Sequence record: OP870143.1
Direction: 5' to 3' (one strand)
Length of the DNA: 64,000 nt
Source of the DNA: Escherichia phage vB_Eco_F22
How positions within the stretch are numbered: the first letter of the stretch is position 1; each line of letters begins with the position of its first letter. The notes under the pieces are model-generated. The model was not told where the DNA came from and did not search any database. It worked only from the letters and a program-made list of their open reading frames with translations. Shown here one piece after another: positions 19,270 to 39,355 of this stretch. The position numbers and the translations under genes are program-made.

Positions 19270-20227
19270 TGTCTCATTGGCTCTGGCTGTATGGCTATTA
19301 CATGACGAGTATGATTACGTAGACAATCCTAAGTACCTGTCTGCTACCACATTGCTTAAACCTATTAAGCAAATCGTCATGAAGCATCGTGTAGATTTTA
19401 GTGACCAGTCCATTGATGTTATGGATTTCGTATCCACATCAATGGGTACTGGCTTACATGACTCTATAGAGAAAGCCTGGAAGCTGGGCCATAAGACTGC
19501 ATTGAAGAAGCTAGGTTATCCTCAGCGAGTAATTGATGCAGTAGTCATTAACCCAACCAAAGCAGACTTTGCTGCTAATCCTGACCTTATCCCAATCTAC
19601 ATTGAACAACGTGGAACCAAACAGGTTAAGGGATGGACTATTGGTGGTAAGTTCGACATCGTAACGGAAGGTCTGCTGCAAGACTTCAAGTCTACCTCAA
19701 CCTATTCCTGGGTTGCTGGTTCCCGTGATGATGAACACAAGATGCAAGGCAGCTTGTATCGTTGGATTCACAACGACATCATTACTGAGGATGTAATTCG
19801 TATTAACTACATCTTCACCGACTTCATGAAACACATGGCTAACAGCAATCCGAACTATCCTGCTAATCGCATTATGCATAAGGATATTCCATTGCTATCT
19901 GTCGAGAAGACTGAGCGTTGGGTAGAGGAGAAGATTCACTTAATTGAAAAGTACTGGGATGCACCTGAAGAGGAAATCCCTGAATGTACTGACGAGGAGT
20001 TGTGGCGAACAGAGCCACAGTTCAAATACTTCTCTGATGCTTCTAAGGTAGATGTACCTGGAGCCAGAAGTACCAAAAACTTTGACGATATGGCATCTGC
20101 CCGTATCTTCATGGCTGAAAAAGGTGGCAAGGGTGCTATCAAGGTCGTGGAGGGACAGGTTAAAAGATGTCTTTACTGTCCTGTCGCATCTATTTGCAAA
20201 CAAAGAGAGAGATATTTTCCATCATGA
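19247..20227 (+). CDS. PD-(D/E)XK-type nuclease with C-terminal Cys cluster (Cas4/RecB-like)
   Basis: Candidate D...(E/D)xK core (GGKFDIV...LLQDFKS) and terminal cysteines (ECTDEE ... RCLYCPVASIC) as in Fe-S RecB-family nucleases. Confidence 0.5.
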   Translation: MKITNNHDVSLALAVWLLHDEYDYVDNPKYLSATTLLKPIKQIVMKHRVDFSDQSIDVMDFVSTSMGTGLHDSIEKAWKLGHKTALKKLGYPQRVIDAVVINPTKADFAANPDLIPIYIEQRGTKQVKGWTIGGKFDIVTEGLLQDFKSTSTYSWVAGSRDDEHKMQGSLYRWIHNDIITEDVIRINYIFTDFMKHMANSNPNYPANRIMHKDIPLLSVEKTERWVEEKIHLIEKYWDAPEEEIPECTDEELWRTEPQFKYFSDASKVDVPGARSTKNFDDMASARIFMAEKGGKGAIKVVEGQVKRCLYCPVASICKQRERYFPS

Positions 20228-22433: not shown

Positions 22434-23186
22434 ATGTCCGAAGAAATCTCCAACGATATGAACACTCAGCTAATCCTGATTGCAGGATTCTCAGCAAGTG
22501 GTAAATCAGCATCGCTGCGTAATATCCGGAACCAGGAACGCTGGCTGTATCTGAATACAGAAGCAGGCAAGCGTCTACCTTTTCGTAATAAATTCAACAC
22601 CTACAACATTGAAGACCCATATCAGATTTGGGAAGCATTTGATGTTGCATCTCCAGGTGGTGAAATGGCAGATGATGTTGATGGTATCATCATCGACTCT
22701 GCTACCTTCATGATGGACATGTTGGAATCCCAGTATGTATTGCCATCTGCTAATACTCAGAAAGCCTGGGGAGACTTTGCACAGTTCTTTAAAATACTGC
22801 TGCAACAGAAAGTCGTTAAGTTTGGTAAGCCAGTAATTATTACTGCACATGCCAAAGATGAACTCGACGAAGCTGCTGGTGTGATGAAAACATTCATCCC
22901 AGTTAAAGGCTCCCTGAAGAACAATGGCCTTGAGGCTTACTTCTCTACAGTGGTTTACGCAGAACGTGTAGACATTAAGGAACTGGAGAAGTACGGCAAC
23001 AAGATGCTTGATATTACGGAAGAAGAACGTGACTTAGGCTATAAGCACGTATTCCAGACACGTCCAACCAAGAAGTCTGTTGGTAAACGACTTCGCTCAC
23101 CGATGGGTATGTTTGATAAGTCGCAGACTTACATTGATAATGATGCCCAAAAACTCTTAGACCATCTGGCTGAATACTACGCTTAA
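22434..23186 (+). CDS. P-loop NTPase (RecA/Sak4-like small ATPase)
   Basis: Walker A GFSASGKS near the N-terminus and Walker B-like GIIIDS; 250 aa. Confidence 0.55.
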   Translation: MSEEISNDMNTQLILIAGFSASGKSASLRNIRNQERWLYLNTEAGKRLPFRNKFNTYNIEDPYQIWEAFDVASPGGEMADDVDGIIIDSATFMMDMLESQYVLPSANTQKAWGDFAQFFKILLQQKVVKFGKPVIITAHAKDELDEAAGVMKTFIPVKGSLKNNGLEAYFSTVVYAERVDIKELEKYGNKMLDITEEERDLGYKHVFQTRPTKKSVGKRLRSPMGMFDKSQTYIDNDAQKLLDHLAEYYA

Positions 23187-23226: not shown

Positions 23227-24030
23227 ATGTCACTGTTCGGTAACTTGAAAGAAAAAACCAAAAACGTTGAAGCTGCAAAAGACACTCTTGGTGGTGGTGG
23301 CTTCGGTGCTAAAGAATCTGATATCTACACTGGTACTGTAAAAGTAGCTTACGTAGGTAAAGCTGATTCTGGTGCAGACTGGATGCAGTTAATCATCGAA
23401 AACCTGAAAGGTTCTGACGGCAATGATGCTGGTGAGTTCCGTGCTCAGGTGTACTTTACTTCCGGTAATGCTAAAGGCAATAAGCCGACTTACGAGAAGA
23501 ATGGTAAAGAATACTTCCTGCCTGGCTACACTGTCATTAATGACATGATGCTGATGGCTACTGGTTGTGAACTGCCAGATGCAGACTTCGAAGAGAAGAT
23601 TGTTAAAGTCTATGACTTCGACCTGAAAGCTGAAACCAATAAGTCTGTCATGGTTCCAGTTGACCTGGTTGGGCAGACTGTTACCTTCGCTCTGGAAAAG
23701 GTTCTGGAAGCTAAGCAGGTTAAAGGTGACAACGGTTACGTTGACTCCGGAGAAACTCGTGAAGTAAACGAGATTCAGAAAGTATTTCACCCGGAATTGC
23801 TGGTCACAGTCGTCGAGGCTCAGGAAGCAGAGAAGGCTGAGAAAGAACTGACCCCAGAACTGGCTGTATTCTATGCAGCATGGCTGGAAAAGAACAAAGG
23901 TAAAACCCGTGATAAGACCAAGGGTTCTGCTGGTGGTAATGGTAAAGGTGGCCTGCCTCCTAAACCAGGTGCAGGTGCTGGCACAGGTACTACTCCTGCT
24001 GGTGGTAAATCTCTGTTCGGTAAGCGTTAA
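23227..24030 (+). CDS. single-stranded DNA-binding protein-like (N4 gp45-like by position and size)
   Basis: 267-aa ORF with Gly-rich, low-complexity C-terminus; assignment is from synteny. Confidence 0.45.
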   Translation: MSLFGNLKEKTKNVEAAKDTLGGGGFGAKESDIYTGTVKVAYVGKADSGADWMQLIIENLKGSDGNDAGEFRAQVYFTSGNAKGNKPTYEKNGKEYFLPGYTVINDMMLMATGCELPDADFEEKIVKVYDFDLKAETNKSVMVPVDLVGQTVTFALEKVLEAKQVKGDNGYVDSGETREVNEIQKVFHPELLVTVVEAQEAEKAEKELTPELAVFYAAWLEKNKGKTRDKTKGSAGGNGKGGLPPKPGAGAGTGTTPAGGKSLFGKR

Positions 24031-24584
24031 TGAAAATCCCAATTGTCGGTGCAGACATTAGCCTCCGCAATTGGGGATTAGCTCGTGGGATGCTGGACAT
24101 TGAGTCCGGCGTCTTCGAGCAGGTCGAACTTAAACTGGTTCAAACTGAAGTTGACCACAACAAACAAGTTCGAACCAACTCCAAAGATATACAAGCTGCC
24201 CATGATTTGTTTCTTGGTTGTGAAGAATGGTTACGGTCTGCTAAAGCAGTATTCGTAGAAGTGCCAGTAGGCTCTCAGTCTGCTAATGGTATGAAGTCCT
24301 ATGGTGTATGCGTAGGATTAATCGGTGCATTCCGTGCATTGGGTTGCCCAATCTTTGAAGTATCCCCAATTGAAAACAAACTTGCACTGGTCGGTGATAA
24401 AACTGCATCCAAAGACACGATGATCCGTGCTGCTCATGCCATCTATCCTGAAGCCAACTGGCTCACAGATAAGAAAGGTAAACTTCTGAATAAGAATGAG
24501 CACTTAGCCGATGCAATCGGTGCAATCCACGCTGGGGTAAATCTTCCAGCTTTCCAAAATCTCATTAAATTAATAAAGGCATAA
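24030..24584 (+). CDS. RuvC-like Holliday junction resolvase
   Basis: N-terminal IVGADISLRNWGLARG (RuvC motif I-like) and C-terminal HLADAIGAIHAG (catalytic Asp region); start overlaps upstream stop (TAATG). Confidence 0.65.
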   Translation: MKIPIVGADISLRNWGLARGMLDIESGVFEQVELKLVQTEVDHNKQVRTNSKDIQAAHDLFLGCEEWLRSAKAVFVEVPVGSQSANGMKSYGVCVGLIGAFRALGCPIFEVSPIENKLALVGDKTASKDTMIRAAHAIYPEANWLTDKKGKLLNKNEHLADAIGAIHAGVNLPAFQNLIKLIKA

Positions 24585-24585
24585 T

Positions 24586-25035
24586 ATGCAAATCGTTCTG
24601 AACCAGTCTGAAGTAGAAGCTGCTATTGAAGCTTATGTAAACGAACAAGTTAATCTTGCCGGGGACATTAATATCCTGGTGAATGCAGATGGTACTGCCA
24701 CCATTGGAATCAATGAAGAGGTCGGTCATAGTGATGACACTCCCCCCGTGGTAGAGAAGAAGACTCGCCGTCCTCGTAAGAATCCACAGGAAGCCAAACA
24801 CCGTCCAGTAGAACCGGAACCGGCTGTTGAGGATGAAGCTGAAGAAGAGGTAAAGGAAGAAGAAACCCAGACCTCTACTGGTGGTGTGAACGAGAGTTCT
24901 ACGCCGGAAGCTGAAGAAGTAGTAGCTGAACCAGAAGCACAAGAAGAAGCTGTGCAGGAGGAAGTTAAGGCAGAAGAACCAGCAGAGAAACCTGCTGCGA
25001 AGCCTTCACTGTTCGCTGGCCTGAAACGTAGTTAA
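24586..25035 (+). CDS. acidic Glu-rich protein
   Basis: 149 aa; C-terminal ~70 residues are dominated by E/A/P/V low-complexity acid repeats. Confidence 0.55.
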   Translation: MQIVLNQSEVEAAIEAYVNEQVNLAGDINILVNADGTATIGINEEVGHSDDTPPVVEKKTRRPRKNPQEAKHRPVEPEPAVEDEAEEEVKEEETQTSTGGVNESSTPEAEEVVAEPEAQEEAVQEEVKAEEPAEKPAAKPSLFAGLKRS

Positions 25036-25266
25036 TCTGGTAGGTGGCTCAGAAGCTGCTGCTAGGTGTGGTAGTGTTTATAGTCCTGATGCTACTACTA
25101 GTCAGGATTATAGACGTGTCGGCTCCATACATAGCTTTTATCATCACTGTCATTATCCTGTGGAAATGCAGTGGTAAACACGGTGGTGACAAGCCGCCAG
25201 AATAACAACAACCGAACCAGTGGACTTTAATACTCTCCGAAGTCCATTGGTTCAACCGGGGTTGAT

Positions 25267-25437
25267 ATGAACAAATTTACTATTCACTGGCTCAATGGAA
25301 AGGTTAGTTCTTTCATGGGTGGAGAACCTGCTGAAGGAAACAAAGCATTCCACATTGATTCAGAAGGCTGCAAAATCTTAATACCATATGCTTGGTATAA
25401 AGATGGTGAAGTTGAAGCATTAAAAAAGAGTAGTTAA
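25267..25437 (+). CDS. small hypothetical protein (56 aa, not in the ORF track)
   Basis: ATG at 25267 read by hand to TAA 25435-25437; weak purine-rich RBS. Confidence 0.25.
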   Translation: MNKFTIHWLNGKVSSFMGGEPAEGNKAFHIDSEGCKILIPYAWYKDGEVEALKKSS

Positions 25438-25865
25438 TATCGTGAAGGGTTCTGTCAGAATCCTTTGAGATAGGAACTCCTATCATAACCTTTCTTAACT
25501 TAATCTTTGCCGTATGGCACTGACGCTAGGGGTGGCCCCCCATCCGTCAGACAGACTATTTTAAGAATGGGTTATCTCAGAAAATGTAAAGCAACATTCG
25601 GGTTAATCAATGGCCTCTCCTATAGAGGCCATTTCTGAATCTTAGGCTATATCCCAAAGGTTAATATCTTTGGGATAAGGCTTCAGATCCCTTATCAAAC
25701 TAACCGCTCAATGTTGAGCATTTTAATCACATAAGCCCCTATATGGGCTGGGTTAAATGTCGGATAGCATAGCTACCTACAGCATCGAATTGTTAGGTCT
25801 TACATGCAATATAGGGTATAAAGGGAGGACTCGTCCCCTCCCTCCTATTATGACATCCTATCAAT

Positions 25866-25929
25866 GAGTACACTTCAAGTGGTAGGCCTGCCGCTCTTGA
25901 AATTCATCTGCAAAGCTGGAAGTGTACTC
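25866..25929. repeat. 11-bp perfect inverted repeat separated by 42 nt
   Basis: gagtacacttc (25866-25876) and its exact reverse complement gaagtgtactc (25919-25929). Confidence 0.8.
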
Positions 25930-26109
25930 TTTGATAGTTTTCGTAAGCGATTATGCGGTTTTTTAGAAACGAACCAATAACATAAATGCAAACGATGATG
26001 TTGTTCTGATGGCAGCCTAATAAGCCAAGCGTCAGTCAGGAGTGAGTCGTCCTGATTATCAAACGACCGTGGAGTACTCCCGTCCATGTATTAGAAACGG
26101 GGGACCAAT

Positions 26110-26476
26110 TACCAGTTGCACGAGATGGCTTGACATGTTCAAGTTTGGACTAAGTGTGACACCGCTAGATTGGAGGGCTGCTGCGGTAAGCTATAGACTC
26201 CAACCGGAGGTTCGAATCCTTCACTGGTAACCAATTCAAAGTAGCACTGCATAGAACGCGAAAAGGTACAGCGACGTTAGCCATACGGTATTGTGAGGTT
26301 CGAGTCCTCACCTATGAGCAGTGACGACTGCAACAGTGCTACTCTGAATTGGAAGAATTAAGACGGGTCTGGTGAAGTAGATGGGGTTCGATTCCCCCAG
26401 GTGGAGTAATCCACTAGCGTGCTTGGTGCACGAATAAGACTTAATACTGGTGGTTCGATTCCATCCCCCGTTACCC
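26110..26476 (+). ncRNA. cluster of tRNA-like structured elements (T-arm-like hairpins; canonical cloverleaves not confirmed)
   Basis: Four T-arm-like hairpins with GGTTCGA(A/T/G)T loops at 26206-26222, 26294-26310, 26382-26398 and 26449-26465; acceptor-like long-range stems (taccagt/actggta, gtagcactg/cagtgctac, gacggg/cccgtt) enclose ~100-125 nt units rather than ~76 nt. Confidence 0.3.
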
Positions 26477-26667
26477 AAAGTCGCCAGGTACTTATGGCAA
26501 ATGGGTAGTAACGAACTAGTCATTCGTCAAACGCCCACCTAATTACGAGTCAGCAAGAACGCCTTCATTTAAACTTAAACAAAAAAGCTTAACGCAATAA
26601 TTATGTAGGGGTATGTAAGGATTGCGAAGAAGGAGCCAGTTAGAGCCTGGCATGACTCACCCATTAT

Positions 26668-26743
26668 GTCCACTTAGCTTAGACTGGGAAAGCAACCGAC
26701 TAATAATCGGAAGGTCACTGGTTCAAATCCAGTAGTGGACACC
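26668..26743 (+). tRNA. tRNA (cloverleaf folds by hand; anticodon reading uncertain)
   Basis: Acceptor gtccact/agtggac 7/7 bp, D-stem gctt/aagc, T-arm actgg-ttcaaat-ccagt, discriminator A then CC; anticodon stem has 4 of 5 pairs and the loop ctaataa gives an unusual AAT anticodon. Confidence 0.5.
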
Positions 26744-26977
26744 TATTCAGCAGTAACATAGTCCTGATTGCATAGCACTCTAAAGACAACACTGGTAAGA
26801 CAGTCCAGTGGCTGCTAATGTATTGTTATTCCCCTCGACGGGAATTTCGCTAGTGAAGGTAACACTTAAAAATCCAAAGCTACGTCTTACTACTATCGGG
26901 CTATCAACCCACGGTCGCTTAACCCTATAGCGGTAGTAGTTTGACGGCCTGCCTCGTTGACTGCGTTAAAGTCACTA

Positions 26978-27016
26978 AGTCCCTCGGAGCCGTCACTCTG
27001 GGGGACTTTTTTATTT
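26978..27016 (+). terminator. Rho-independent terminator closing the RNA island
   Basis: Stem agtccc...gggact followed by ttttttat. Confidence 0.5.
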
Positions 27017-27041: not shown

Positions 27042-27200
27042 ATGATTGACCTAATCTTAACACCGTATGCCTATGAGGTAACGGATAACCAAGGACGTAA
27101 GTCTTTGGTGTTTGCAGGTAGCGTAGCCTATAACAACGCAGTCATGTTTAAATACAAACTCAAACCACTCTATGAGGCTAATAATGGCAACAGTAAGTAA
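27042..27200 (+). CDS. small hypothetical protein
   Basis: Internal ATG of track ORF 27015..27200, placed after the terminator; 52 aa. Confidence 0.3.
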   Translation: MIDLILTPYAYEVTDNQGRKSLVFAGSVAYNNAVMFKYKLKPLYEANNGNSK

Positions 27201-27564
27201 AGAATCAATCGAAGCTAAGATTAAGAGCGTCTACTATTTCAACGGTGCTGATGCAGTAAAGTCTGCCTTCGTTAACCCTTCTGCACTTCCGGCAGACGAT
27301 TTGTCTAACCTGGGCCTGGTAACCTACTGTATTATCATCCTGGAAAACGGCTTCAAAGTTGAAGGTGTATCTGCCTGTGTTGACCCGACCATCTATGATG
27401 AGCAGAAAGGTCGTCAGTATGCATATGAAAACGCATTCAATAAGATTTGGGAAATAGAGGGTTACCTGCTGCGTCAGGCACTGCATGAGAAAGAGGAGAC
27501 TGCTAAGGCTCTGGCTTCCTTTGCAGAAAACAACACCTGTGATGGTGGTGGTTGCACCATTTAA
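27184..27564 (+). CDS. hypothetical protein
   Basis: ATG at 27184 with GAGG RBS; 126 aa. Confidence 0.5.
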   Translation: MATVSKESIEAKIKSVYYFNGADAVKSAFVNPSALPADDLSNLGLVTYCIIILENGFKVEGVSACVDPTIYDEQKGRQYAYENAFNKIWEIEGYLLRQALHEKEETAKALASFAENNTCDGGGCTI

Positions 27565-27644
27565 CAAACAGGTATATGGTAGTTTTTACCGAAAGGTACT
27601 GAACTACCTGTCATGTGGTAAGGCTCTAGAAGCCAAAACAAAAC

Positions 27645-27672
27645 AAGCCCTCCTAGTGAGGGCTTTATCATT
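27645..27672 (+). terminator. terminator-like hairpin
   Basis: aagccctc-ctagt-gagggctt followed by tatcattt. Confidence 0.4.
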
Positions 27673-27683
27673 TGAGGTAGTTA

Positions 27684-28171
27684 TGTCAGAAGAAATTAAA
27701 GTTCACTTCACCAACTACATTGGAACCAAGTGTGTAAATGGTTTCAAGATGAACAAGGAAACATATTGCAAACTTCGTGGCTGGGATGTGCCTGCTAATG
27801 AAGACCCATTAGAAGTAGGTTACCTAGTAGAATACCCGGATTCTAAACCTAACCATGAGCAATTCCGTGGTTATATTAGCTGGTCACCGAGGGCTGCATT
27901 TGAGGCTGCATATCATGATGTAGATAAAGGCTGTAGCTTTGGTCATGCAGTAGAACTTATAAAACTAGGTCACAGACTGACCCGTAAAGGCTGGAACGGT
28001 AAGGGAATGTATATCACCCTAGTATCTGGTGAAAATTGGGCTATGGATAAACATGAGAATACCATATGTGAGAAACGGGATTGGTTGGGCATAAAAACTG
28101 TTGATGACCAGTTTATGCCTTGGGTTCCATCCCAATCGGATGTATTAGCCGAAGACTGGATAATTCTATAG
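27684..28171 (+). CDS. DUF2829-like protein (Tad2-like candidate anti-defence protein)
   Basis: C-terminal half carries AVELIKLGHRLTRKGWNGKGMYI, which I recall as the hallmark of DUF2829; start at ATG 27684 (GAGG RBS) after the terminator hairpin. Confidence 0.45.
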
Positions 28172-28179
28172 GAAACTAT

Positions 28180-28473
28180 ATGGAACTCTTTAAGAAAGGG
28201 CAGCTTATACCAAAGCGTATTGGTGGATTGCATGTTCATCGTAAGGCAAGACATCGTTTAACCTTTGGTTGTGATGTACAAATTGATGGTAACAATTGGA
28301 TTGCCGTACCAGATACAGGAATTGCAATGGTTCACTGTAAGAAGTTAGGTATTCGTAGAAACAATGGTACTTATCAAAATGTACATGCTGATTTTGTAGA
28401 TATTCATTTTGAAGCCAACAGGATTGATTATGTAATCAAGACTGAACGAAAAATTCTTGTAGTTAAGAAGTAA
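28180..28473 (+). CDS. hypothetical protein
   Basis: ATG at 28180 with AGGAAA RBS; 97 aa; last plus-strand gene before the late block. Confidence 0.45.
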   Translation: MELFKKGQLIPKRIGGLHVHRKARHRLTFGCDVQIDGNNWIAVPDTGIAMVHCKKLGIRRNNGTYQNVHADFVDIHFEANRIDYVIKTERKILVVKK

Positions 28474-28475
28474 AA

Positions 28476-28510
28476 TAGAAGCCCCTCATTAGAGGGGCTT
28501 TTTTATTTTA
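28476..28510. terminator. bidirectional Rho-independent terminator between convergent genes
   Basis: Hairpin aagcccctc-atta-gaggggctt flanked by A-tract on one side and ttttttatttta on the other; the vRNAP stop codon lies in the T-tract. Confidence 0.7.
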
Positions 28511-31500
28511 GTTTACCAGGTTCATCCAAGGGTTCAGGTTGTGAGCACGTAGACCTTGCCCAAAGCCCCATGAGTAATCCAGCCCACCCTTAGCAGCAAT
28601 GCTAAAGATGTTGTCCTGAATAGGCAGACCAACATTACCAAACATGGTAGGAGTTGGAGCCAGCATTGCCATTGCTGCATGCACCGGGTTATTACGAATC
28701 ATGGACACTGCAACCTTAGCTGAACGAATCTTAAAGTTGTAGAACCACATCAAACCAACACTTTCCATATACCCACGGAAGCGACCTGGTAAACGGTCAT
28801 AGTTAACAAACTCTTCAGTTACACGTCCCAGTGCTTCTTCACGAGTCTTACCTTTACGCTGAGTCAATTCATCATAGATGATTGCTTTAGCGATAAAGTC
28901 AGAGTACTCAACTGTCTTTTGGATACCCTGGAACAGAGCAGTATCCTTGGTGATAAGTGCATAACGTCCAGCAGTACGTACAGACTTAGGTAACTTATCT
29001 GCCAGCTTTTCCATATATTCGTGAAGTTTGCCTTCAGTAATCAGAATGTCATCACGACCGATACCAGCATCTGCAATTGAAGAGAACTCACCAGCTTCCA
29101 ACAGAGGCCAGATGCTCATACGCTTATGGCTATCAGTAATGGACTGAATCTCAGCCTTAAGTTTACGAATCTGGTTCGGGTTAGTAGCTGCACGTAATTC
29201 TGCTTCTGCATCTACCTGACGCAGACGAGATTTCAGGTACTGGTTAATCTCAGCAGTTTTCTGTGGAATGCTTTTAGCAATGTTCTTAACCGGTACACCA
29301 CGGGCAACCATCTGGTAAAGGTTAGCCAAGAAGTTAACAGCAGGTACGACTACTGACTTAACTACAATCAGAGTCTTGGCTTCTTTAACTAAGTTTTGAA
29401 CCAGGTTCTCACCACCCATTGTGTACTTATAAGCACGGTTGCCAAATACACCCAGCATAGCTTTCTTGAAGGTATCCAATGTTTCCGGGGACCAACGAGA
29501 ATTACCAGACCAGGCATCACCTACAGAAGCTGCACGATAACCAAGTGCATCATTCAGCATGTCACGACGCACCCACAGTTCACCCTCACCAAACAGACTT
29601 TCTGCTTTCTGACGTGTTTCACTGTTCATTAGCTTAAGAGCATCAGCAGTTACTGGGTCCAGTTTAGAACCAAGAAGGTTAACGTACTGGGATTTATTAG
29701 AGGCAGACATCTTAATGTCGTTCTCATACATGCTATGCAGGTTCTCAATCAACATATTGTTGAAACGCTGAGCCTTAGCTTCTTCCACCTGACGACCACG
29801 CCATACACCAATTGCACGGGCAAGGTGATTCTCGCCTTCAATGTGCTTCAGCATGTTAGGGTCAATGGATTGCTCATAGGCAACCACATTACCTTTGTCA
29901 TCATATACAGGCAGAAGTGGTTCATTACCACGTTCACCACGAGCCAGTGCTTTAGTGATACGGTCTACGGAAGGCTTGTCAGTAATACGACCAGCTACCA
30001 TCGAACCCATCGTAAAGCCCGTACCGATGTCTACACCACCAGCAGTATTACGAACGTTTTGTAGGATACCCTGTGAGAAAGGAGCCTGTGCCTGTACCGG
30101 TGCGAAGTAGTAGCTGCGTGCTGGACCACGGTTAGCAGAGCTACCTTGATAAGTACCCAGACGTACATAAGATTTCTCAATCAAATCTCCAAACTGGCTA
30201 TCTTCAGCAACAATCAGATTAACACCCTGTTTAGTCTCACTAGGGATATGCCCTTTGTACTGGTTCAAGGTTGCACGCATATCAGACTTGGCTTTAGCCA
30301 TTTCATCTTTACGCTGACCAACCAGGTAAGAAGTAGCAAAGTCCATTCCATCAACTTCTGTCTGAGCCAGAGAAGATAACATCTCACGGTCGGACTTGTT
30401 CATTGCTTCCAGTGCATACAGGGTAATCAGTTTATCCAGTTGAGCTACATCTACAGTAGAACGAGCAGCCTGACGTTCACCAAGCATACGAGAGATTGCA
30501 GTAGCATTACGCAGCAGGTTATTACCGACTGTACCGTTAATCATGAACTGAGCCAGTTGCTTAGATTTACGACTAATAAGAGGCCAGTTACGACCAGCTT
30601 GTTTCTGCAAATCTGCTTCCAGCTTATTCACTTCACGGTCAACAATCTTCTGGTCAGATAGTAGGTCACGGATTTCAGCCAGAGACATAGTGTCACGCAG
30701 AACAGCTAAGTCAGTTTTACCCATGCCAGTGTGCATTGCTTTCCACTCATCGTTAGTCAGCTTACGGCTGAACTTAGATGCGATAGTGGTAGGCAGGTGT
30801 TCACGGAATTGCTGACGGTCTGCTTGTACCTGTGCACGAACTGCTTTAATCAAATCGTATACAGAAGCATTACTCTTAGTACGACCAGTTAAGTCATTAA
30901 CCAGGTCATGGAAGGGTTGCCATACCTTACCCTGGTTCATTGCAGCCATAACACCTTCAGCTACAATTGCACCATTCTTCTCAGTAGCAATAGCAGCCAC
31001 CAATTGTGCAGCATGGGCAGCACCTTTAACCAATGGATTCTTAGTATTAGCTGCAACTTCGCGAGCACTTTCTAAAGCACGAGTAGACAGTGCATCAATA
31101 GAATCCACCAGATACTGGTTAGCACGATCAATAGCATTACCACTAGGAGTAGCAACGGAATCATAGAATGACTGTGCATTGAGGCTAGTCTGCATGATTG
31201 TCTGAGCCAGTGCATCCATACCTTCCTGTACGTTGGTAGCTTTAGTGTCACCTGCTACACGGGCATTCAAGCTAGACATTGCAGCAGTACCAATGTTAGT
31301 CAGCATTGCATCAATGGTATTACCGGATTTCTTATCTGCTTTCATAACAGGAATGTTAGCCAGTACGTTACGTACCTCTTCACTTACCATTGCCAGACCA
31401 ACAAAGGTAGGCAGTAAGGAAGAACGACCCTGTGCATCAAACTCGATATTGTTAGCACCCATGATGGTATCGAACTTCTGCTGTGCATAGTAACGGTCAG

Positions 31501-34500
31501 CAGGGTTGGTACTATCCGGGTCAGCCATGAATGCTTCAACGGTCAGATTCTTAGTAACGTGTGCATAGTATTCCTGTGCACGAGATAGAGCAGCCGGACT
31601 AATAGCAGCCTCAGTAGCCAAAGCAGCAACGATATTAGTGAACAGGCGTTGTTCCTGCATATTCATAGTGAAACCATGAGCCTGAACATCACGGGTTACT
31701 TTAGTAGCATTCACTACTGCATCAGAGAACTTACCTTTACGAATTACTTGTTGCACTGGTTCTGAACCAATGTAGTTAGTAATCAGCTTATCAAAGGTCT
31801 GCCCCAATTCTTCCAGACGGGTATTGTCGCCATACGCCTTGTTATGGAACAAGGTAGTGTCCTTGGATACAGCAGCCGTAGGAGCCTGCCCACGCATAAC
31901 TACGGAAGAGTTAAACAGTAAGCCAGAGAACATATCATCTGCATTAGCAGGAGCTTTCTTACGACCGAATACCAGACGCTTGATTGCTTCATACACAGAC
32001 TGAACCATAGTCTTCAGTGCAGTAGTCTTCTTCTGCTTACTAATTAGTTCACGGTTGGTTAAGCCCCAAGCCATGTATTCGTTCAGTGCAGCAGCTTTAG
32101 CCATTGCCGGTTCAATGAAGCCATTAGACAAGTGACCGTTAATGGTATTGAGTGCATCAGCATATGCTTCACGTACTGCCGGGGTTTCATCCTTAACATC
32201 CAGAGTACGGAACTGGTTCATCAGGTCTTCAATATTCTGAACTGCTTCATTAGGAGTACCCTCATAATGAGCCAGTACAGATTCAAAAGTAGAAGCATGT
32301 ACCAATTCATGAACCAGAGTCTCTAAGGAAGGGGTAACTAAGTAGATGGTCTTATCATCAAAGTTAGTCCAGCCATATGCATTACCAGCTTCGGCAGCTT
32401 CAATATCTTCCGGTGCTGGGCGAGTAATGTTCTTCTCAATAGCATAAGCATCCAGCTGAGCAGGAGTACCGTAAACAACCTTGTAGTCTTTAGCAGCAAG
32501 GGATTTCTGTACTTCTTTCAATACCGCTTGCTGTTCAGGAGACATCTCTTTAGCCAGCTTAGTGATAGCAGTATTAGACAGCAGACGTACACCAGACTTC
32601 AGTACACGACCAACCTGTTCCATTGCTGGTACTTCTTTAACAGGTGTTTCTTCAGCAGGTACTTCTTTCACTGGTTCTGCTTTAGCAGCACGTACTGCAT
32701 CACGGCGCTTATTTAATTCGGCATCAAACAGTTCGTTTAGCTTAGCTACTTGCTGGTCTACAGTCAGACCTTCCAGAGAGATTTTACCGTTGTTCACATA
32801 AGGAGCACCTACAGCAGCCATCTGGTCAACAGTGGTCTGTACCTGGTTCATTACTTTGTGGCGAATATCTACACCTAAAGCAATGTTACGCAGATTACGT
32901 TCAATGAGGTTAACACCGGATTTCTCAATCATATCAATCTTATACTGCCTGTCTCCCTCAACACGACTGATATGGGAAAGCTGTTCAAAATCTAAAGCGG
33001 AACGAGCAATGTCATCAATTGTCTTATCTGACAACTTATTAAAGTCTACGTTCTTCATGAACTTAGAGAAGGAGTCATACACGTTCTTAATAGGATTGCC
33101 CTGCCAAGAAGTATAAACAGCCTCATTAGCTTTACGACTTGCATCAGTGATGTCATTGATACCAATGTTCATACCATCAAAGATTTTCAGGGTATTCTTC
33201 GGAGCACCTTTCATAGTAGAAAGGGTCTGCATCATCATGCCATCACCAGTACCAATGGTCATAAATGGAATACCTGCAACACCTGCTTGTGAAGGAGCAT
33301 AGATGCTCATTGGCACACGCATACGGTCGTCTAAGTTGGTAGCCAGTACTTGGTTAGCAACATCAGTATTCTCACTGCCAGCAATGTAAAAAGTCTGTGA
33401 ACCAGTCTCAATCATTGGAGCCAGTGGAGACAGGGATTTCTGAATTTCATTCAGCTCTTCCTGTGTTAAGAAATCGCCCTTCTTCCAGGTTGGGTCTTTT
33501 TCTTTTTCTGCCAGTTTAGCCTGTACTGCTTGTTGGAACATATCCTGCAATACTAAAGACTGAATTTGAGTAGCCTTCTGCAAGTTCTCAGTGGAGTGCA
33601 TCAGACCTTCACCAACGGTGAACCGGATACTTTGTCTCATTGGTTCAACGAAGAAGTGCAACATGTTCTCTTGTAGGTTCTTAAGAGCATCACCAGATAC
33701 AGTAAACTCCTGGGGATCTAACTCACCAGTCAGAGCACCATCTACTTCCTTAATAAATAACTTACCTTTACGCTTAGCTGGAATCTTACCAGTCAGTGCT
33801 TCCATAGAAGTAAGGAAGGTATCCAGCATAGCCTGAGCATCTGCCTCAGACGCAGCCTCCTTACCAAACAATGCCATAGCTGGGGAAATGCTAGGGTCAG
33901 TAGCACGTGCTTGTAGAACGTCACTGAGGCGTTCGTAGATGGCGTCAGTAATTGCACTAACCATCTTGCCAGCAATACCACGAGCACCAGAACCATAGAT
34001 GGTAATGGTCAGGGGGTTTTTAGCGATGCCACGTTTCAGGTCCAGAGTACCGTCTTCATTCAGGTTAAAGTCTTTAATGAACAGGTCCATTAGCTTCTGG
34101 AGATGATCCATCTGGCTCATAACAGGAACGTTGTTACGGTAAGCACTACGTAATTCATTTAGATAGAATTGCAAACTATTGGTAGATGCTTCATACAGGT
34201 CAACATTATCGTCGATAGAGCAATGTTCGTTCATCGTTTTACCAGCACGACCAAAGAACAAACCACCCTTGGCAGTATTCTTAATCCAATTTGGAGTGAA
34301 CTTACCTCCAGTCATTAATACCATTGCGTTGATTGGGCCGTTGGTTACACCATCGGCTTCAACGTACAGAGGAGTATTAAAATTAGCACGGTTATCACTG
34401 TTCAGGTAACGGGCATATTCCATCAGAGCCATGAGAGCCACGAAGGATTTGTTATCACCCAAAGAGGTCTTCAGGATATCTACTGCATCTGTCGGTAAGT

Positions 34501-37500
34501 GCCCAGACTTATCAAACTCAACCATCATATCAACAGCAGGTTTCAATTTGCCTTCCAGAGCTTTAGTCAACTCTTCAGACATAGCTTCACGGGACATTTT
34601 ATGTACCTTGATGCCTAATGCCTGAGCCAGTCCTAACTGGAAGTCAGAGAACGCTTGGCTATTTTCATTACTCAGGTCAATAGTAGAGAAGGTTGGCAGA
34701 ATTGCTTCACGAACCAGCTTACTGGATTGTGGGTTGTTCTTACCAAGCATCTGCATACGACCTACTCGGGTCATGTTATAGCCATAGTGAATGGGGGTAT
34801 CCAAACCATTCTCTTGTTCTTTTAGATGATTAATTAAACCGAACAGAGAATCATATGCCATAGATACTGATAAGTTCTTACCTTCCAGTGATTTAGCATT
34901 ATTTTTATTCAGCAAATCAGGATTAAGAGTACCAGCACCCATTAGTTCCAGAATGCTGTCTCGACCCAATGCTTCATAGAAGTTAACCATCGGCATGTGT
35001 ACACGGAACTCAGTAGCCTGTTCAGCTTTCAGTGCAGCTTTCTGTTCGGGGGTATTCTTAACAGCAGGATTACGTAACTGAGTTTGGGCCACGGAAGGAA
35101 TGTCGTCACCAAAGTACATTTTCTCTTCCGGATTTACCAACACAGCTTCTTCAATTGCTGTAGGGAAATTATTAATAGGGTCTTTATCAGCCAACTTATT
35201 AATAGTGTACAGACCAATAGTCTTATTAGAGTCCGGGTCAATCTCAGACACATCCAGCATAGTCTCTGTAACTGCACCCATCTCAATGAGGGAAGACAGA
35301 ATCTCTGTAGCCATTGCCACTGGAATGCCTTTTGTATAACCCAGTGGTGCATTAGGGTTACGATTCAAACCCCAATAAGATTCAATCTTCTGAGCCAGTG
35401 AGCTAGTAGCTTCGACCAGGGTCTGGGCATTCTCAAATTCAGCCAGAATACTTTCTGGTAACAAGGATGCTTCTACTCCAGTAATGGCAGCTACGTCTTT
35501 TATGTCTTTAATGGCAGCATTCTGTGCAGCAGTCAGTCGCCATTGCAGACCAGCAAGCACGGCAGTCTCTAACAACTGGTCATTGAACTTAAAGGTATCA
35601 CCATCTTTTTCAACGATATTCAGCAGTTTGCCACCTACCCAACGGTTAGCTTCAGTACCTTCTGCAAAACGTTTACCAACGTTCTTATTAGCAAGGAACT
35701 TAGCCAGTCGTTCAGACAGAGTAGTCTTCAGTGTTTCCCCAAAGTCCATCAAATCTTGGTAACGTTCTAACACATCACCCGTGAGAGCGTTATTTTCTTT
35801 TTGAGTGAATGCTTCAAAGCGAGCAGCAGAAGACAGTGCTTGCTTAATATCAGCTAAAGGAGATTCAGAACCAATGGTACGGGACTTGGGTTCTTCTGGC
35901 AGGGTAAATGCTTTCAGGAACTGGTTCGGTGTCTTTTCATTGTTATAGACAGGGAACACTGTTTCCATCTCAGAAAGAGGTTTGCCACCTACTGTATAAT
36001 CTGCTTTTAGCTGAGCCAGCGATACTTCATCTTTCTCCACGTTGTTAGTGTTACGGCCAGAGGTATCTACACCAACCAGAATCTGTGCATTATTGGCTTC
36101 AACGAAAGATTGAACAGTATTGAATTGTTCAGCGGTCAGCTTTTGATTATCAAACAGTTGTAGGGACACAAACGGTTGTTCACTGCCTTTATAGAAAGTA
36201 GAGCGAATAGAACCAGTATCCAAAGACATATCACGATAGCCATCATGCCCAAATACGTCAGACAGGCTGATATGGTCGCCATTAGAACCAACCACAGTAC
36301 CATCAGCAAACAACCACGGACTCTCTCTACGGTCACCACTCTTATTAAGAGTTTCCTGTGAAATGGTATTTTCTTTCACATAAGCATCTCTTTCAGATTC
36401 AGTAGGTTGCTCAATGGTATCCTCATTAGTGAGGGTAGCATCTACTGTTTCAGGCTTAGTAGTAGAAACTTCTTCTGTTTTTGGGCTAGTCTCCTTAGTA
36501 GGAGCAGTCTTATTTTCTACCACTGGTTTAGCTTTAGGCTGTACAGTAGTAGTGTCCTCTTGCACTGGTGCAGGAGTTTCATCAACCTGATTCACTGGTT
36601 CATTAGTCTGTTGAGACTGAGTGGCATCAAGACCACCTTGACGGAACTCTTTAACTACCTGGGCAGCAGGCTTGTTCAGACGTGAATCCAACGAGGTAAC
36701 TTTCACATGAGAAACATTAAGCTCCGGGTAAGCCGTAGCAAGTGCATTAGCAATATCAGCTACGGTTTTGGCCTCCAGTCCTACTTGCTGTGCAAACTTA
36801 ACAGACTTGGTATCGTAAGGATTAACACCGAGGCCAGTACGACTACGTACCCATTCACGGGAAGGCGAGAGAGCCTGATAATGAACAGACTTATTCTTAT
36901 CCGCATTCCCCGAAATCAGATGCTCATTCAACGCTCCGACCTTATTCTGCATGTGCTGGGCGAACTTCATAAAGTCGCTCAGATAAGCGGAGGCCAAATC
37001 GAAGTTACCAGAGTTATACGCAGAACGAATGCGTTTCGCATGTTGCAACGCAGAGTACTGTCCTTCATTAGAACGAGACTCGTCGGTTTTAATCTGTTTA
37101 CTAACAATGTCTTGAGGACGTAAGCCTAGTTCTTCTGCTTTAGCGTCGAACTCTCGTGCACCCTGTAACAAGGCAGCAGCAGATTGCAGGGCAGCACGTT
37201 GACGATTCCCCAGTGTAATCTTACCTTCGCTTGCGTGCTTCAGAACCATGTTCACTGAATCTGCATCCAGTACTTCTGGAGATACATCAGCAGCCATAGC
37301 AATGTTGTTTGCTTGGGCTTGATTAGCTTCTTCAGTAGCTTTCAGCTTACCTGCTTCAGCCTGTTCCTGAATCATAGAATGGATGGCACGGAATGCACGA
37401 AGTACTTTAGGGGTATTCTGTACGTTAGCCATCAGACCAGAGAACTGGTCTACGATTGCAGCAGCAGGGGAACCCTGTTCCAGATTAGCCAGAGCACCCG

Positions 37501-39355
37501 GGTCACGGTTAATGAAGCTATCCATGGACATGATGTTGTCATACATCTGGATTGCAGCTTCCATTTGAACGTTAGGGTCTTCGGCAGTATTAACCAGGTC
37601 AGCCATCTTCTGAATAGCTTCTACACGGTTAGTGGAACCAGAAACAGCTTCACGGATTACTGGGTTAGCTTGTTCCAACTCTACCGGGTCGAACTTCATT
37701 GCCTGAGTTAAGTCAGCAGCATACTGGGTAGCAGCAGCTTTCTCTTCCGGAGAAATATCCATTGCATCTACTGCTTCCTGTACAGTTGCTTGTGCTTGTT
37801 CTGCCTGAGCAGCAGCTTCCTGTGCAGCAGCATTAACCGTAGCATCAGCTACAGGGGATGCTTGTTCATTACGCTTGGCAACTTCTTCACCACGTTGAAC
37901 CAGAATGTTAGTAAGAGGAGATGCAGCTTTTGCTAGTGTTTTACCAACCAGAGAAGCACCAGCCAGGGTAGTACGAAGAGTAGGGCCAGCAGCAGCACCG
38001 GCAGCTTTAACAGTTGCACCAGGGACTTGAGCAACTCCAGCACTACCGAAGCCATAAAGTGCACCAAGACCTGCTTGCTCACCAACCCCTTTGAGGGTGT
38101 CACGGGATGCATCAACGTTTTCTTTGATTGCAGTATTCTGTGCGAACTGACCAAAGCCGGATTGAATACCTTCCTCTACAGTTTCACGCAGCATATTAGA
38201 ACCAGCACCTGCCAGTGAACCTACCTTAAGTGGGTTAAGTTCAAAGCGAGATACCAGTGGGCCGGTAGCAGCAGCAACTGGAGCAGTTAAGCCAGCAGCA
38301 ATGATACCTGTTTCAGATGCAGTCTGACGACGTGCTTCATCAGGAGATAAACCATCAGCAATATGCTGTTGGTAAACAGGAGACTTACTTGCCAGTTCTT
38401 GGTGGGACATCTTCATGATTTCAGAAGCAGTCTGTTGGTATGCACCACCAGCTTCCATACCACCGATTGCAATAGCAGGTGCAGCAACACGACCAGCAGA
38501 CAGTGCAACCTGTGCAGGACGTGAACCTAACCCAGCAGCTAAGGTAATACCCTTAACAGCTTTATCACCACCTACCATTACTTTACCGAGTGCAGATACA
38601 CCACGAATAAGTGGACCACCGGTAAAGAGGGAACCAACACCTTCACTCAGTCCGTCAGAGGCAGCCATACCATTATCAAGTGTATTAGCAACAGAATCGA
38701 AAGCATCACGACCAATACGAGACAAGGAGGCAACCAAATCGTTCTCCCCATTTTTGATGTCTTGTTCATAAAGTTTCTGATTCTTTTGAGCAGAAATCTG
38801 GTTCTGATTCTGAACAACCTTACGGGTAGCATTCAGTGCATCAGACTGTAGATTGTGTACGCCTTCATTCAACCAATCCATCCCGGAAGCAATGGTTGCC
38901 CCGGCATTATCATTGACCAAACCTGTGCCAAGAGCAGCAATGCCCCCAAGGGTATTAGCAACACCAAGACCAACACCAGAAAGAGTATCGCCAAATGCTT
39001 CTGCGTTAGTACGTTGTTTAGATAAGTCCTGACGTACAACATCCGCAGCATTAGCTCGGCTATTAAGAATTTGTAGACCTTGCTCATTACCGTATTTATT
39101 AATGATTTCTAATGGGGAGGCTTGAGTGAAATCTGCCTGAAGTGAACCTGGTTCGAATGCACCGATTCCAAGATTACCTACACGTCCGGTCTGGAGATTG
39201 TAAGCATTCTCTGGGGTTAATTGGAAAGGGATTTGCCCTTGTGCAGCTTGCTTCTGAGAGGTTGCAGTAGAGACATCGACTCGCTTAGCATTAGTGATGC
39301 TGTCTGCGAAACCTGCCAGACGGTCAAATGTTGACATAGCATGTTTCCTGTTCAA
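28508..39355 (-). CDS. virion-encapsidated RNA polymerase (giant vRNAP, N4 gp50-like)
   Basis: 3615-aa ORF; single-subunit RNAP-like motifs in the central region: motif A-like LYVEADGVTNGPINAM, motif B-like K-x-PLTITIYGSGARG; first gene of the late block. Confidence 0.8.
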   Translation of the reverse strand: MNRKHAMSTFDRLAGFADSITNAKRVDVSTATSQKQAAQGQIPFQLTPENAYNLQTGRVGNLGIGAFEPGSLQADFTQASPLEIINKYGNEQGLQILNSRANAADVVRQDLSKQRTNAEAFGDTLSGVGLGVANTLGGIAALGTGLVNDNAGATIASGMDWLNEGVHNLQSDALNATRKVVQNQNQISAQKNQKLYEQDIKNGENDLVASLSRIGRDAFDSVANTLDNGMAASDGLSEGVGSLFTGGPLIRGVSALGKVMVGGDKAVKGITLAAGLGSRPAQVALSAGRVAAPAIAIGGMEAGGAYQQTASEIMKMSHQELASKSPVYQQHIADGLSPDEARRQTASETGIIAAGLTAPVAAATGPLVSRFELNPLKVGSLAGAGSNMLRETVEEGIQSGFGQFAQNTAIKENVDASRDTLKGVGEQAGLGALYGFGSAGVAQVPGATVKAAGAAAGPTLRTTLAGASLVGKTLAKAASPLTNILVQRGEEVAKRNEQASPVADATVNAAAQEAAAQAEQAQATVQEAVDAMDISPEEKAAATQYAADLTQAMKFDPVELEQANPVIREAVSGSTNRVEAIQKMADLVNTAEDPNVQMEAAIQMYDNIMSMDSFINRDPGALANLEQGSPAAAIVDQFSGLMANVQNTPKVLRAFRAIHSMIQEQAEAGKLKATEEANQAQANNIAMAADVSPEVLDADSVNMVLKHASEGKITLGNRQRAALQSAAALLQGAREFDAKAEELGLRPQDIVSKQIKTDESRSNEGQYSALQHAKRIRSAYNSGNFDLASAYLSDFMKFAQHMQNKVGALNEHLISGNADKNKSVHYQALSPSREWVRSRTGLGVNPYDTKSVKFAQQVGLEAKTVADIANALATAYPELNVSHVKVTSLDSRLNKPAAQVVKEFRQGGLDATQSQQTNEPVNQVDETPAPVQEDTTTVQPKAKPVVENKTAPTKETSPKTEEVSTTKPETVDATLTNEDTIEQPTESERDAYVKENTISQETLNKSGDRRESPWLFADGTVVGSNGDHISLSDVFGHDGYRDMSLDTGSIRSTFYKGSEQPFVSLQLFDNQKLTAEQFNTVQSFVEANNAQILVGVDTSGRNTNNVEKDEVSLAQLKADYTVGGKPLSEMETVFPVYNNEKTPNQFLKAFTLPEEPKSRTIGSESPLADIKQALSSAARFEAFTQKENNALTGDVLERYQDLMDFGETLKTTLSERLAKFLANKNVGKRFAEGTEANRWVGGKLLNIVEKDGDTFKFNDQLLETAVLAGLQWRLTAAQNAAIKDIKDVAAITGVEASLLPESILAEFENAQTLVEATSSLAQKIESYWGLNRNPNAPLGYTKGIPVAMATEILSSLIEMGAVTETMLDVSEIDPDSNKTIGLYTINKLADKDPINNFPTAIEEAVLVNPEEKMYFGDDIPSVAQTQLRNPAVKNTPEQKAALKAEQATEFRVHMPMVNFYEALGRDSILELMGAGTLNPDLLNKNNAKSLEGKNLSVSMAYDSLFGLINHLKEQENGLDTPIHYGYNMTRVGRMQMLGKNNPQSSKLVREAILPTFSTIDLSNENSQAFSDFQLGLAQALGIKVHKMSREAMSEELTKALEGKLKPAVDMMVEFDKSGHLPTDAVDILKTSLGDNKSFVALMALMEYARYLNSDNRANFNTPLYVEADGVTNGPINAMVLMTGGKFTPNWIKNTAKGGLFFGRAGKTMNEHCSIDDNVDLYEASTNSLQFYLNELRSAYRNNVPVMSQMDHLQKLMDLFIKDFNLNEDGTLDLKRGIAKNPLTITIYGSGARGIAGKMVSAITDAIYERLSDVLQARATDPSISPAMALFGKEAASEADAQAMLDTFLTSMEALTGKIPAKRKGKLFIKEVDGALTGELDPQEFTVSGDALKNLQENMLHFFVEPMRQSIRFTVGEGLMHSTENLQKATQIQSLVLQDMFQQAVQAKLAEKEKDPTWKKGDFLTQEELNEIQKSLSPLAPMIETGSQTFYIAGSENTDVANQVLATNLDDRMRVPMSIYAPSQAGVAGIPFMTIGTGDGMMMQTLSTMKGAPKNTLKIFDGMNIGINDITDASRKANEAVYTSWQGNPIKNVYDSFSKFMKNVDFNKLSDKTIDDIARSALDFEQLSHISRVEGDRQYKIDMIEKSGVNLIERNLRNIALGVDIRHKVMNQVQTTVDQMAAVGAPYVNNGKISLEGLTVDQQVAKLNELFDAELNKRRDAVRAAKAEPVKEVPAEETPVKEVPAMEQVGRVLKSGVRLLSNTAITKLAKEMSPEQQAVLKEVQKSLAAKDYKVVYGTPAQLDAYAIEKNITRPAPEDIEAAEAGNAYGWTNFDDKTIYLVTPSLETLVHELVHASTFESVLAHYEGTPNEAVQNIEDLMNQFRTLDVKDETPAVREAYADALNTINGHLSNGFIEPAMAKAAALNEYMAWGLTNRELISKQKKTTALKTMVQSVYEAIKRLVFGRKKAPANADDMFSGLLFNSSVVMRGQAPTAAVSKDTTLFHNKAYGDNTRLEELGQTFDKLITNYIGSEPVQQVIRKGKFSDAVVNATKVTRDVQAHGFTMNMQEQRLFTNIVAALATEAAISPAALSRAQEYYAHVTKNLTVEAFMADPDSTNPADRYYAQQKFDTIMGANNIEFDAQGRSSLLPTFVGLAMVSEEVRNVLANIPVMKADKKSGNTIDAMLTNIGTAAMSSLNARVAGDTKATNVQEGMDALAQTIMQTSLNAQSFYDSVATPSGNAIDRANQYLVDSIDALSTRALESAREVAANTKNPLVKGAAHAAQLVAAIATEKNGAIVAEGVMAAMNQGKVWQPFHDLVNDLTGRTKSNASVYDLIKAVRAQVQADRQQFREHLPTTIASKFSRKLTNDEWKAMHTGMGKTDLAVLRDTMSLAEIRDLLSDQKIVDREVNKLEADLQKQAGRNWPLISRKSKQLAQFMINGTVGNNLLRNATAISRMLGERQAARSTVDVAQLDKLITLYALEAMNKSDREMLSSLAQTEVDGMDFATSYLVGQRKDEMAKAKSDMRATLNQYKGHIPSETKQGVNLIVAEDSQFGDLIEKSYVRLGTYQGSSANRGPARSYYFAPVQAQAPFSQGILQNVRNTAGGVDIGTGFTMGSMVAGRITDKPSVDRITKALARGERGNEPLLPVYDDKGNVVAYEQSIDPNMLKHIEGENHLARAIGVWRGRQVEEAKAQRFNNMLIENLHSMYENDIKMSASNKSQYVNLLGSKLDPVTADALKLMNSETRQKAESLFGEGELWVRRDMLNDALGYRAASVGDAWSGNSRWSPETLDTFKKAMLGVFGNRAYKYTMGGENLVQNLVKEAKTLIVVKSVVVPAVNFLANLYQMVARGVPVKNIAKSIPQKTAEINQYLKSRLRQVDAEAELRAATNPNQIRKLKAEIQSITDSHKRMSIWPLLEAGEFSSIADAGIGRDDILITEGKLHEYMEKLADKLPKSVRTAGRYALITKDTALFQGIQKTVEYSDFIAKAIIYDELTQRKGKTREEALGRVTEEFVNYDRLPGRFRGYMESVGLMWFYNFKIRSAKVAVSMIRNNPVHAAMAMLAPTPTMFGNVGLPIQDNIFSIAAKGGLDYSWGFGQGLRAHNLNPWMNLVN

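Follow-up and report, generated by a model that had tools for sequence, protein, structure and literature searches.

An N4 gp49-type phage protein joins a Tad2-like domain to an N-terminal domain that is recurrently fused to signal sponges

RESULTS

Gene content and setting of the locus

We analyzed a window of 64,000 nucleotides from Escherichia phage vB_Eco_F22 (OP870143.1); positions given below are those of this window unless another record is named. The source genome is that of a G7C-like (Gamaleyavirus) N4-like coliphage, and the interval 26900-28600 matches 71 phage records by megablast, nearly all of them Gamaleyavirus N4-like phages of Escherichia or Shigella, at 85-95% identity. Four small plus-strand genes at 27042-28473 form a pocket between an ORF-poor tRNA stretch and the virion RNA polymerase (vRNAP) gene, an arrangement described in our first-pass annotation and borne out by the ORF list. 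In order, they are: (i) a 52-aa gene of no known function (27042..27200, phrog_34266); (ii) an Acb4-family (PF13876) sponge gene, the orthologue of N4 gp48 (27184..27564); (iii) the gene studied here, which encodes 162 aa plus stop and is the orthologue of phage N4 gp49 (27683..28171); and (iv) a 97-aa gene of no known function (28180..28473, phrog_29107). The vRNAP gene (3615 aa, 28508..39355, minus strand) is convergent with the pocket. Further upstream, the plus strand carries genes for a primase (PriCT_1, 20167-22377), an AAA_24/Sak4-like protein (22434-23186), SSB (23227-24030), a Bes1-like RuvC-like protein (24030..24584), and a 149-aa protein (24586-25035).

Terminator-like hairpins flank the pocket: a strong one on the plus strand just upstream, with 13 pairs and a T-run (26977..27008), and a bidirectional one that separates the pocket from the convergent vRNAP gene (28477..28502). 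A third hairpin, G+C-rich, of 8 bp and terminator-like on both strands (27645..27665), lies between the Acb4-like and Tad2-fusion genes; it might separate the two transcriptionally or have another role. The ORF-poor stretch (25036-27000), called an RNA island in the first-pass annotation, contains a single tRNA-Ile (26668-26743, ARAGORN and Rfam) with the unusual anticodon AAT, and an Rfam search of the same interval returned nothing else at gathering scores. Our scan for sigma-70-like promoters found none upstream of the pocket on the plus strand, its three weak matches all falling within 26600-26707 in the tRNA region. According to published work on N4, the phage RNAPII transcribes the genes of this strand, which are middle genes; a sigma-70 scan would miss such transcription.

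The content of the pocket differs between related phages, with megablast query coverage of 62-100%. None of the four pocket proteins matched NCBIfam, and the 52-aa and 97-aa genes are candidates for further anti-defence functions. The product of 27184-27564 matches PF13876 (E=6e-25, Pfam), the Acb4 sponge family (Chang et al.), and is 46% identical to N4 gp48 by BLASTP; a profile built from it and its relatives matches the SPO1 Acb4 structure 9E4W at 1.8e-10. N4 gp48 has been named Acb4, triggers Panoptes, and binds c-di-AMP. Judged by their sequences, the Acb4-family and Tad2-like genes would be two sponge genes side by side. The RuvC-like protein shares 41% identity (E=7e-47) with gp60 of Pseudomonas phage Ab09, which is Bes1 ("broad evasion of signalling 1"), a protein reported to help evade CBASS and Thoeris. 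We also considered the 24586-25035 gene as a possible Bes2, but it has no detectable similarity to Ab09 Bes2.

The interval from primase-polymerase to vRNAP has been described as a gene-acquisition hotspot of N4-like phages, with a cargo of Tad2, Tad3, Acb4, Sequestin, and the RuvC-like Bes1 (Fedorova et al., bioRxiv 10.64898/2026.06.04.730250). The vRNAP gene is its right-hand boundary. The first-pass annotation had called the pocket a typical place for anti-defence cargo, and its position inside this anti-signalling hotspot, next to an Acb4-family gene, agrees with that description. As a separate observation, Bas96_0023 (PQ850623; locus L001, 3214-3594) matches PF13876 with E=5e-27; a preprint describes Bas96 as lacking an endogenous Acb4 and as not restricted by PanDA (10.64898/2026.08.10.743972). 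The Acb4 of Gamaleyavirus may simply not bind c-di-AMP.

Gene call and boundaries

The ORF proposed in the first-pass annotation stands, but its start at 27684 does not: the in-frame ATG is at 27683, and reading from 27684 gives 15 stops. The stop codon is at 28169-28171, and a Shine-Dalgarno-like GAGG, read from the sequence, lies 6 nt 5' of the ATG (27673..27676, plus strand). The peptide cited in that annotation, AVELIKLGHRLTRKGWNGKGMYITL, corresponds to residues 89-113 of the 162-aa protein. In the vB_Eco_F22 record the gene is annotated as F22_0059 (27542-28171), with a product of 209 aa whose last 162 aa are 100% identical to our protein and whose start reaches back over the 27645-27665 hairpin and the 3' end of the Acb4 gene. 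We prefer the 162-aa form because the 73 aligned homologues start at or near MSEEIK, with more distant ones lacking the first residues; the 209-aa annotation is probably over-extended. In Bas96 (PQ850623; locus L001, about 3710-4213) the Tad2-fusion gene begins with ACG in place of ATG. The Bas96 record starts its 144-aa product at an internal Met, and the first strands of the N-terminal domain would thereby be lost.

The C-terminal half is a Tad2 family domain

Residues 84-162 (27932..28168, plus strand) form a Tad2-like domain (DUF2829, PF11195). The first-pass annotation had recognized a DUF2829 signature in this half of the protein from the sequence alone, and an hmmscan search of Pfam confirms it: PF11195, now named "Tad2-like" and formerly DUF2829, matches residues 85-161 with E=2.1e-23, its 83.1 bits exceeding the gathering score of 25, and the match spans profile positions 2-72 of 73. 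This is far above chance level. A phmmer search of PDB sequences matched five solved Tad2 proteins, namely ModTad2 (9EIB, E 4e-16, 62 bits), SPO1 Tad2/Gp34.65 (8SME, E 7e-14, 55 bits), HgmTad2/AcrIIA7 (8KBI, E 1.5e-10), M. odoratus Tad2 (8V3E), and SptTad2.

The ligand pocket is conserved as well. In SPO1 Tad2, the residues that touch 1''-3' gcADPR or its waters are W25, N26, I63, T65, D67, H71, W73, S76, T78, and D79 (Yirmiya et al.), and their equivalents in the HMMER alignment are W104, N105, I137, T139, D141, M145, W147, S150, S152, and D153. Eight of the ten are identical, T78 to S152 is a conservative change, and H71 to M145 is a difference, at a position where the functional ModTad2 carries Ala. 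We predict the ligand residues to be W104, N105, I137, T139, D141, W147, S150, S152, and D153; six of these (W104, N105, T139, W147, S150, and D153) are invariant among the 73 homologues, down to 43% identity. By profile, fold, and pocket, the domain belongs to the Tad2 family. The earlier suggestion of a Tad2-like Thoeris anti-defence gene is supported, and the gene product would act as a sponge for Thoeris signals.

The pocket does not reveal which signal the domain would prefer: that of ModTad2 is canonical, but this protein blocks type II Thoeris and leaves type I unaffected. N7-cADPR or cUMP is the ligand of other Tad2 proteins, and of 84 sponges tested against seven systems, 19 (about a quarter) were inactive against all of them. 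In HgmTad2 and SptTad2, a cyclic-dinucleotide (CDN) pocket is built by an insertion of 35-41 aa between beta2 and beta5. This insertion is absent from the F22 domain, which places it outside the CDN-binding Tad2 subgroup; its beta2-beta3 insertion is short (~20 aa, residues 114-133), similar to that of SPO1 Tad2, and we therefore do not expect a cyclic-dinucleotide pocket of the HgmTad2 type.

The N-terminal half is a separate conserved domain

While the first-pass annotation was right about the C-terminal half, it overlooked a separate N-terminal domain of ~80 aa. Residues 1-83 (27683..27931, plus strand; core about residues 10-80) lie outside the Tad2 domain and are predicted to fold as beta-beta-alpha-beta-beta-alpha with high confidence, the pLDDT being about 95 in the full model and 94.0 when the domain is modelled alone. 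Conservation across the 73 homologues equals that of the Tad2 half. Ten residues are invariant in this set (G14, K16, Y28, P37, G46, L48, Y64, W67, P69, and Y77), and the domain can be summarized by the motif YIGTK..A.PM.R..Y...RGW..P..E...GYLVEY.DG..N...F.GYISWSP..FE.AY. The invariant residues are mostly aromatics, plus K16 and R32, a set that would suit nucleotide binding without proving anything. The domain is net acidic (mean -3.6), which is not decisive because Acb4 is also acidic (-2.6).

Searches for a relative among known families returned no match. Neither the domain nor 47 diverse relatives matched Pfam, a 48-sequence profile found nothing among PDB sequences, and Foldseek found no solved homologue. 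We compared the domain with several known sponge families. Sequestin (PF21825) is all-helical and about 60 aa long, whereas the N-terminal domain is beta-rich; there was no Pfam match at E<=10, and hhalign gave a probability of 0.3%. A divergent copy of Tad2 was likewise rejected (hhalign 0.8%, no Pfam or HMM support). Acb4 (PF13876) has no Pfam match to the domain, and its 12-column hhalign match is an artefact that falls on the envelope edge at the boundaries of Acb4-N fusions (N, the N-terminal domain). Acb2/Tad1 did not match by Pfam, profile, or fold. The LockinA sequence (Tal et al. supplement) shows no resemblance when judged by eye, and one protein (P0216) carries a Lockin-like segment in addition to, and apart from, the N-terminal domain; the PDB search gave no fold match to Lockin, whose structure is possibly missing from the PDB copy that was searched.

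One further lead came from Hadary et al., who removed sponge homologues with "PF21825 or PDB 6E3C" extra domains, so some two-domain forms fell outside their screen. The structure 6E3C shows the OB-fold of Dec, a decoration protein of phage L. Likeness to Dec was negligible by HMMER (1.0 bit) and by hhalign against Dec (0.4%) or against an 11-sequence Dec family profile (0.2%, a shallow profile), and 6E3C was absent from every fold-search list for the N-terminal domain. We cannot confirm a Dec-like identity by sequence, profile, or fold. A search for the N-terminal motif in the supplement of Hadary et al. gave no match.

The N-terminal domain is fused to five sponge families

An exhaustive phmmer search over 1.84 billion cluster representatives identified 1,111 proteins with the N-terminal domain at E<=1e-3, and 463 at E<=1e-10. 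These counts are of 50%-identity cluster representatives, and the architectures described here are those of the closest 146 of the 1,111, from which the rest may differ. A Pfam scan showed that 111 of the 146 are fused to known signal sponges: PF21825 (Sequestin) in 49, PF11195 (Tad2) in 39, PF13876 (Acb4) in 18, and PF24729 (Acb2/Tad1 hairpin) in 5. The HMM-based architectures were N-Tad2 (29), N-Sequestin (29), Acb4-N-Sequestin (9), N-Acb4 and Acb4-N (9), and N-Tad2-Tad2 (3); the triple fusions were confirmed by Pfam, as were further Acb2/Tad1-hairpin partners. One protein in this set (P0252) combines AP2, HNH_3, and Tad2 domains. About a dozen family proteins consist of the N-terminal domain with little else, some of them frameshifted fragments. 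We discarded one hit of 1815 aa with 12 matching stretches (P0129) as a false positive due to SpaA/prealbumin-like repeats. In phrog_9467, the domain is joined to an Acb4-like half.

The domain is also present in published supplementary data. The string "SWSP" occurs 148 times in the Sequestin homologue table of Tal et al., reflecting the N-terminal domain fused to Sequestin, and their supplementary tables also hold it fused to Lockin. The main text of Tal et al. and the paper of Chang et al. do not mention the extra domain, and we found no paper discussing it in open-access text and bioRxiv preprints to mid-2026.

Among isolate phages, tblastn detected the domain in 121 records from at least nine host genera (Escherichia, Klebsiella, Vibrio, Pseudomonas, Erwinia, Rhizobium, Clostridium, Aeromonas, and Acinetobacter). 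Escherichia phage Huey encodes an N-Tad2 fusion with an Acb4 gene nearby, and Vibrio phage 41E34.2 encodes another N-Tad2 fusion. In Clostridium phage CP51 (locus L008, 1295-1965), a 68-aa stand-alone Tad2 gene is directly followed by an N-Acb4 fusion, and on a 77-kb metagenomic phage contig an N-Sequestin gene is followed by an Acb2/Tad1-hairpin gene. The Aeromonas T7-like phage JELG-KS1 (locus L010, 1198-1407) carries a 69-aa stand-alone copy (86 bits) between its spanin and terminase genes, annotated as "putative decoration protein"; this domain and the 6E3C extra domain of Hadary et al. may be the same thing. From the fusions, the stand-alone copy, and the spread among phages, we conclude that the N-terminal domain is autonomous, widespread, and overwhelmingly associated with signal sponges.

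DISCUSSION

Proposed function and alternatives

We think it likely that TIR-derived ADPR signals are sequestered by the C-terminal domain, acting as a Tad2 sponge, and that the N-terminal domain adds a second activity, making the protein a two-domain anti-signalling factor of an N4-like coliphage. By analogy with solved Tad2 proteins, the Tad2-like domain would assemble as a homotetramer with pockets at the protomer interfaces. These pockets would bind and sequester ADP-ribose-derived messengers from Thoeris TIR proteins, the candidates being 3'cADPR/gcADPR, His-ADPR, and/or N7-cADPR; the Thoeris effector would then never be switched on, and the protein should be able to rescue infection from Thoeris. 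The N-terminal domain is an independent module that might either provide a further ligand pocket or bind an immune or phage protein. Since it is repeatedly fused to unrelated sponge domains, its most likely contribution is a second anti-signalling activity. The Tad2 tetramer is a dimer of V-shaped dimers, with tetramerisation running along helix alpha1, and an 83-aa N-terminal fusion could affect this assembly.

A different signal might be the target. The Tad2-like domain could sequester Pycsar cUMP/cCMP or CBASS cyclic dinucleotides, instead of or besides ADPR signals, at an alternative protomer interface. MoTad2 binds cUMP/cCMP in a second pocket, HgmTad2 and SptTad2 bind cGG/cGAMP, and the F22 domain scores slightly closer to ModTad2 than to SPO1 Tad2 (62 versus 55 bits). 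However, the CDN pocket of HgmTad2 requires the long insertion that the F22 domain lacks, the canonical ADPR pocket is conserved apart from T to S and H71 to M145, and of 18 Tad2 proteins tested, only 2 were active against Pycsar. We consider a non-Thoeris signal unlikely on balance. Quite unlikely, in our judgment, is that the N-terminal domain holds the main function by binding proteins (masking a phage trigger, inhibiting an immune protein, or anchoring the sponge to the capsid), with Tad2 serving mainly as an oligomerisation scaffold.

Automatic labels suggest yet another role. AcrIIA7 shares the DUF2829 domain (8KBI/9KZR), and relatives of the F22 protein in phages Mimir124 and Huey are labelled "anti-CRISPR protein". 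Against an AcrIIA7-type function, attempts to reproduce Cas9 inhibition with HgmTad2/AcrIIA7 or further Tad2 homologues failed (Li et al.), and the DUF2829/Tad2 family has been argued to be anti-Thoeris (Yirmiya et al.). The Acb4-like neighbour bears the same anti-CRISPR label, which suggests database carry-over. The published negative Cas9 data lead us to reject the anti-CRISPR reading as largely refuted and, at best, very improbable. E. coli is not known to carry a type II-A CRISPR-Cas9 system.

Significance

For the Tad2 half, the preferred assignment as a Thoeris-signal sponge is supported but not new, because relatives are already labelled as DUF2829 or Tad2-like. Existing labels range from "hypothetical" and "DUF2829 domain-containing protein", the latter also used in RefSeq, to "Thoeris anti-defense 2-like protein" in Shigella phage Moonfish, and the presence of a Tad2-like gene in the N4 hotspot is consistent with the 2026 description of that hotspot. 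This half is routine, one more predicted Thoeris-signal sponge in a described location. In open-access text and bioRxiv preprints to mid-2026 we found no paper in which N4 gp49 or an orthologue had been tested.

The literature that we searched describes neither the partner domain nor its fusions to five sponge families. From these Rosetta-stone fusions to Sequestin, Tad2, Acb4, the Acb2/Tad1 hairpin, and Lockin, which are unrelated to one another, we tentatively propose that the N-terminal domain of N4 gp49-type proteins represents an undescribed family of anti-signalling modules, the simplest case being a further small-molecule sponge that has a ligand of its own, a reading that we hold as a possibility worth pursuing and somewhat short of probable. 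Tal et al. reached Sequestin by the same argument from fusion to known sponges, restricted to Pfam-defined families; because the N-terminal domain has no Pfam entry, it lay beyond the reach of their screen, although their supplementary tables contain it. If our proposal is true, N4 gp49 would be a dual inhibitor, and the ligand of the N-terminal domain could point to an immune signal beyond the range of its partners. A domain that binds a signal would extend the set of sponge families and could, like Tad1 and ModTad2 before it, be used as bait to find an undescribed immune messenger. A domain that binds a protein would reveal a new way to couple sponges to immune or viral components. Its role is directly testable because the domain is present in N4, a tractable model phage in which the neighbouring gp48 (Acb4) has already been studied.

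Comparison with known systems

The best-characterized relatives, SPO1 Tad2 (Gp34.65; 8SME/8SMF/8SMG) and ModTad2 (Myroides odoratus; 8V3E/9EIB), are single-domain proteins (89 aa), and the F22 protein differs from them by its additional 83-aa N-terminal domain. Both originate from (pro)phages of Bacillus or Bacteroidota, whereas the F22 protein comes from an N4-like coliphage, and the measured ligands are theirs (3'cADPR; His-ADPR and cUMP), that of the F22 protein being predicted. HgmTad2/AcrIIA7 (8KBI) and SptTad2 (8WJD) differ from the F22 domain in the length of their insertion (35-41 aa versus ~20 aa).

Closer in architecture are the sponge-sponge fusions, such as Acb4-Tad2 of Pasteurella phage Pm86, Tad2-Sequestin of Comamonas, and Acb4-Sequestin of Pseudomonas phage Ab09 (gp59), the last of which sits in the homologous N4-like hotspot. 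Like the F22 protein, these join a sponge to a second small domain in an anti-defence island. Both of their halves are known sponges, whereas the partner half of the F22 protein matches none of Sequestin, Acb4, Tad2, and Acb2/Tad1 by Pfam, profile, or fold. We considered Ab09 gp59 as a carrier of the N-terminal domain and rejected it, as its 147 aa leave no room for one. CP51, a Gram-positive siphovirus, has the identical three modules found in N4 and F22, differently joined. The closest counterpart is N4 gp49 (YP_950527, "DUF2829 domain-containing protein"; N4 34003-34485), which is 87% identical over 158 aa (tblastn/BLASTP), shares the two-domain architecture, and likewise lies after the Acb4 gene (gp48) and before the convergent vRNAP gene. 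Between N4 gp49 and the F22 gene we find no difference of substance, and orthologues are present in Gamaleyavirus and Enquatrovirus.
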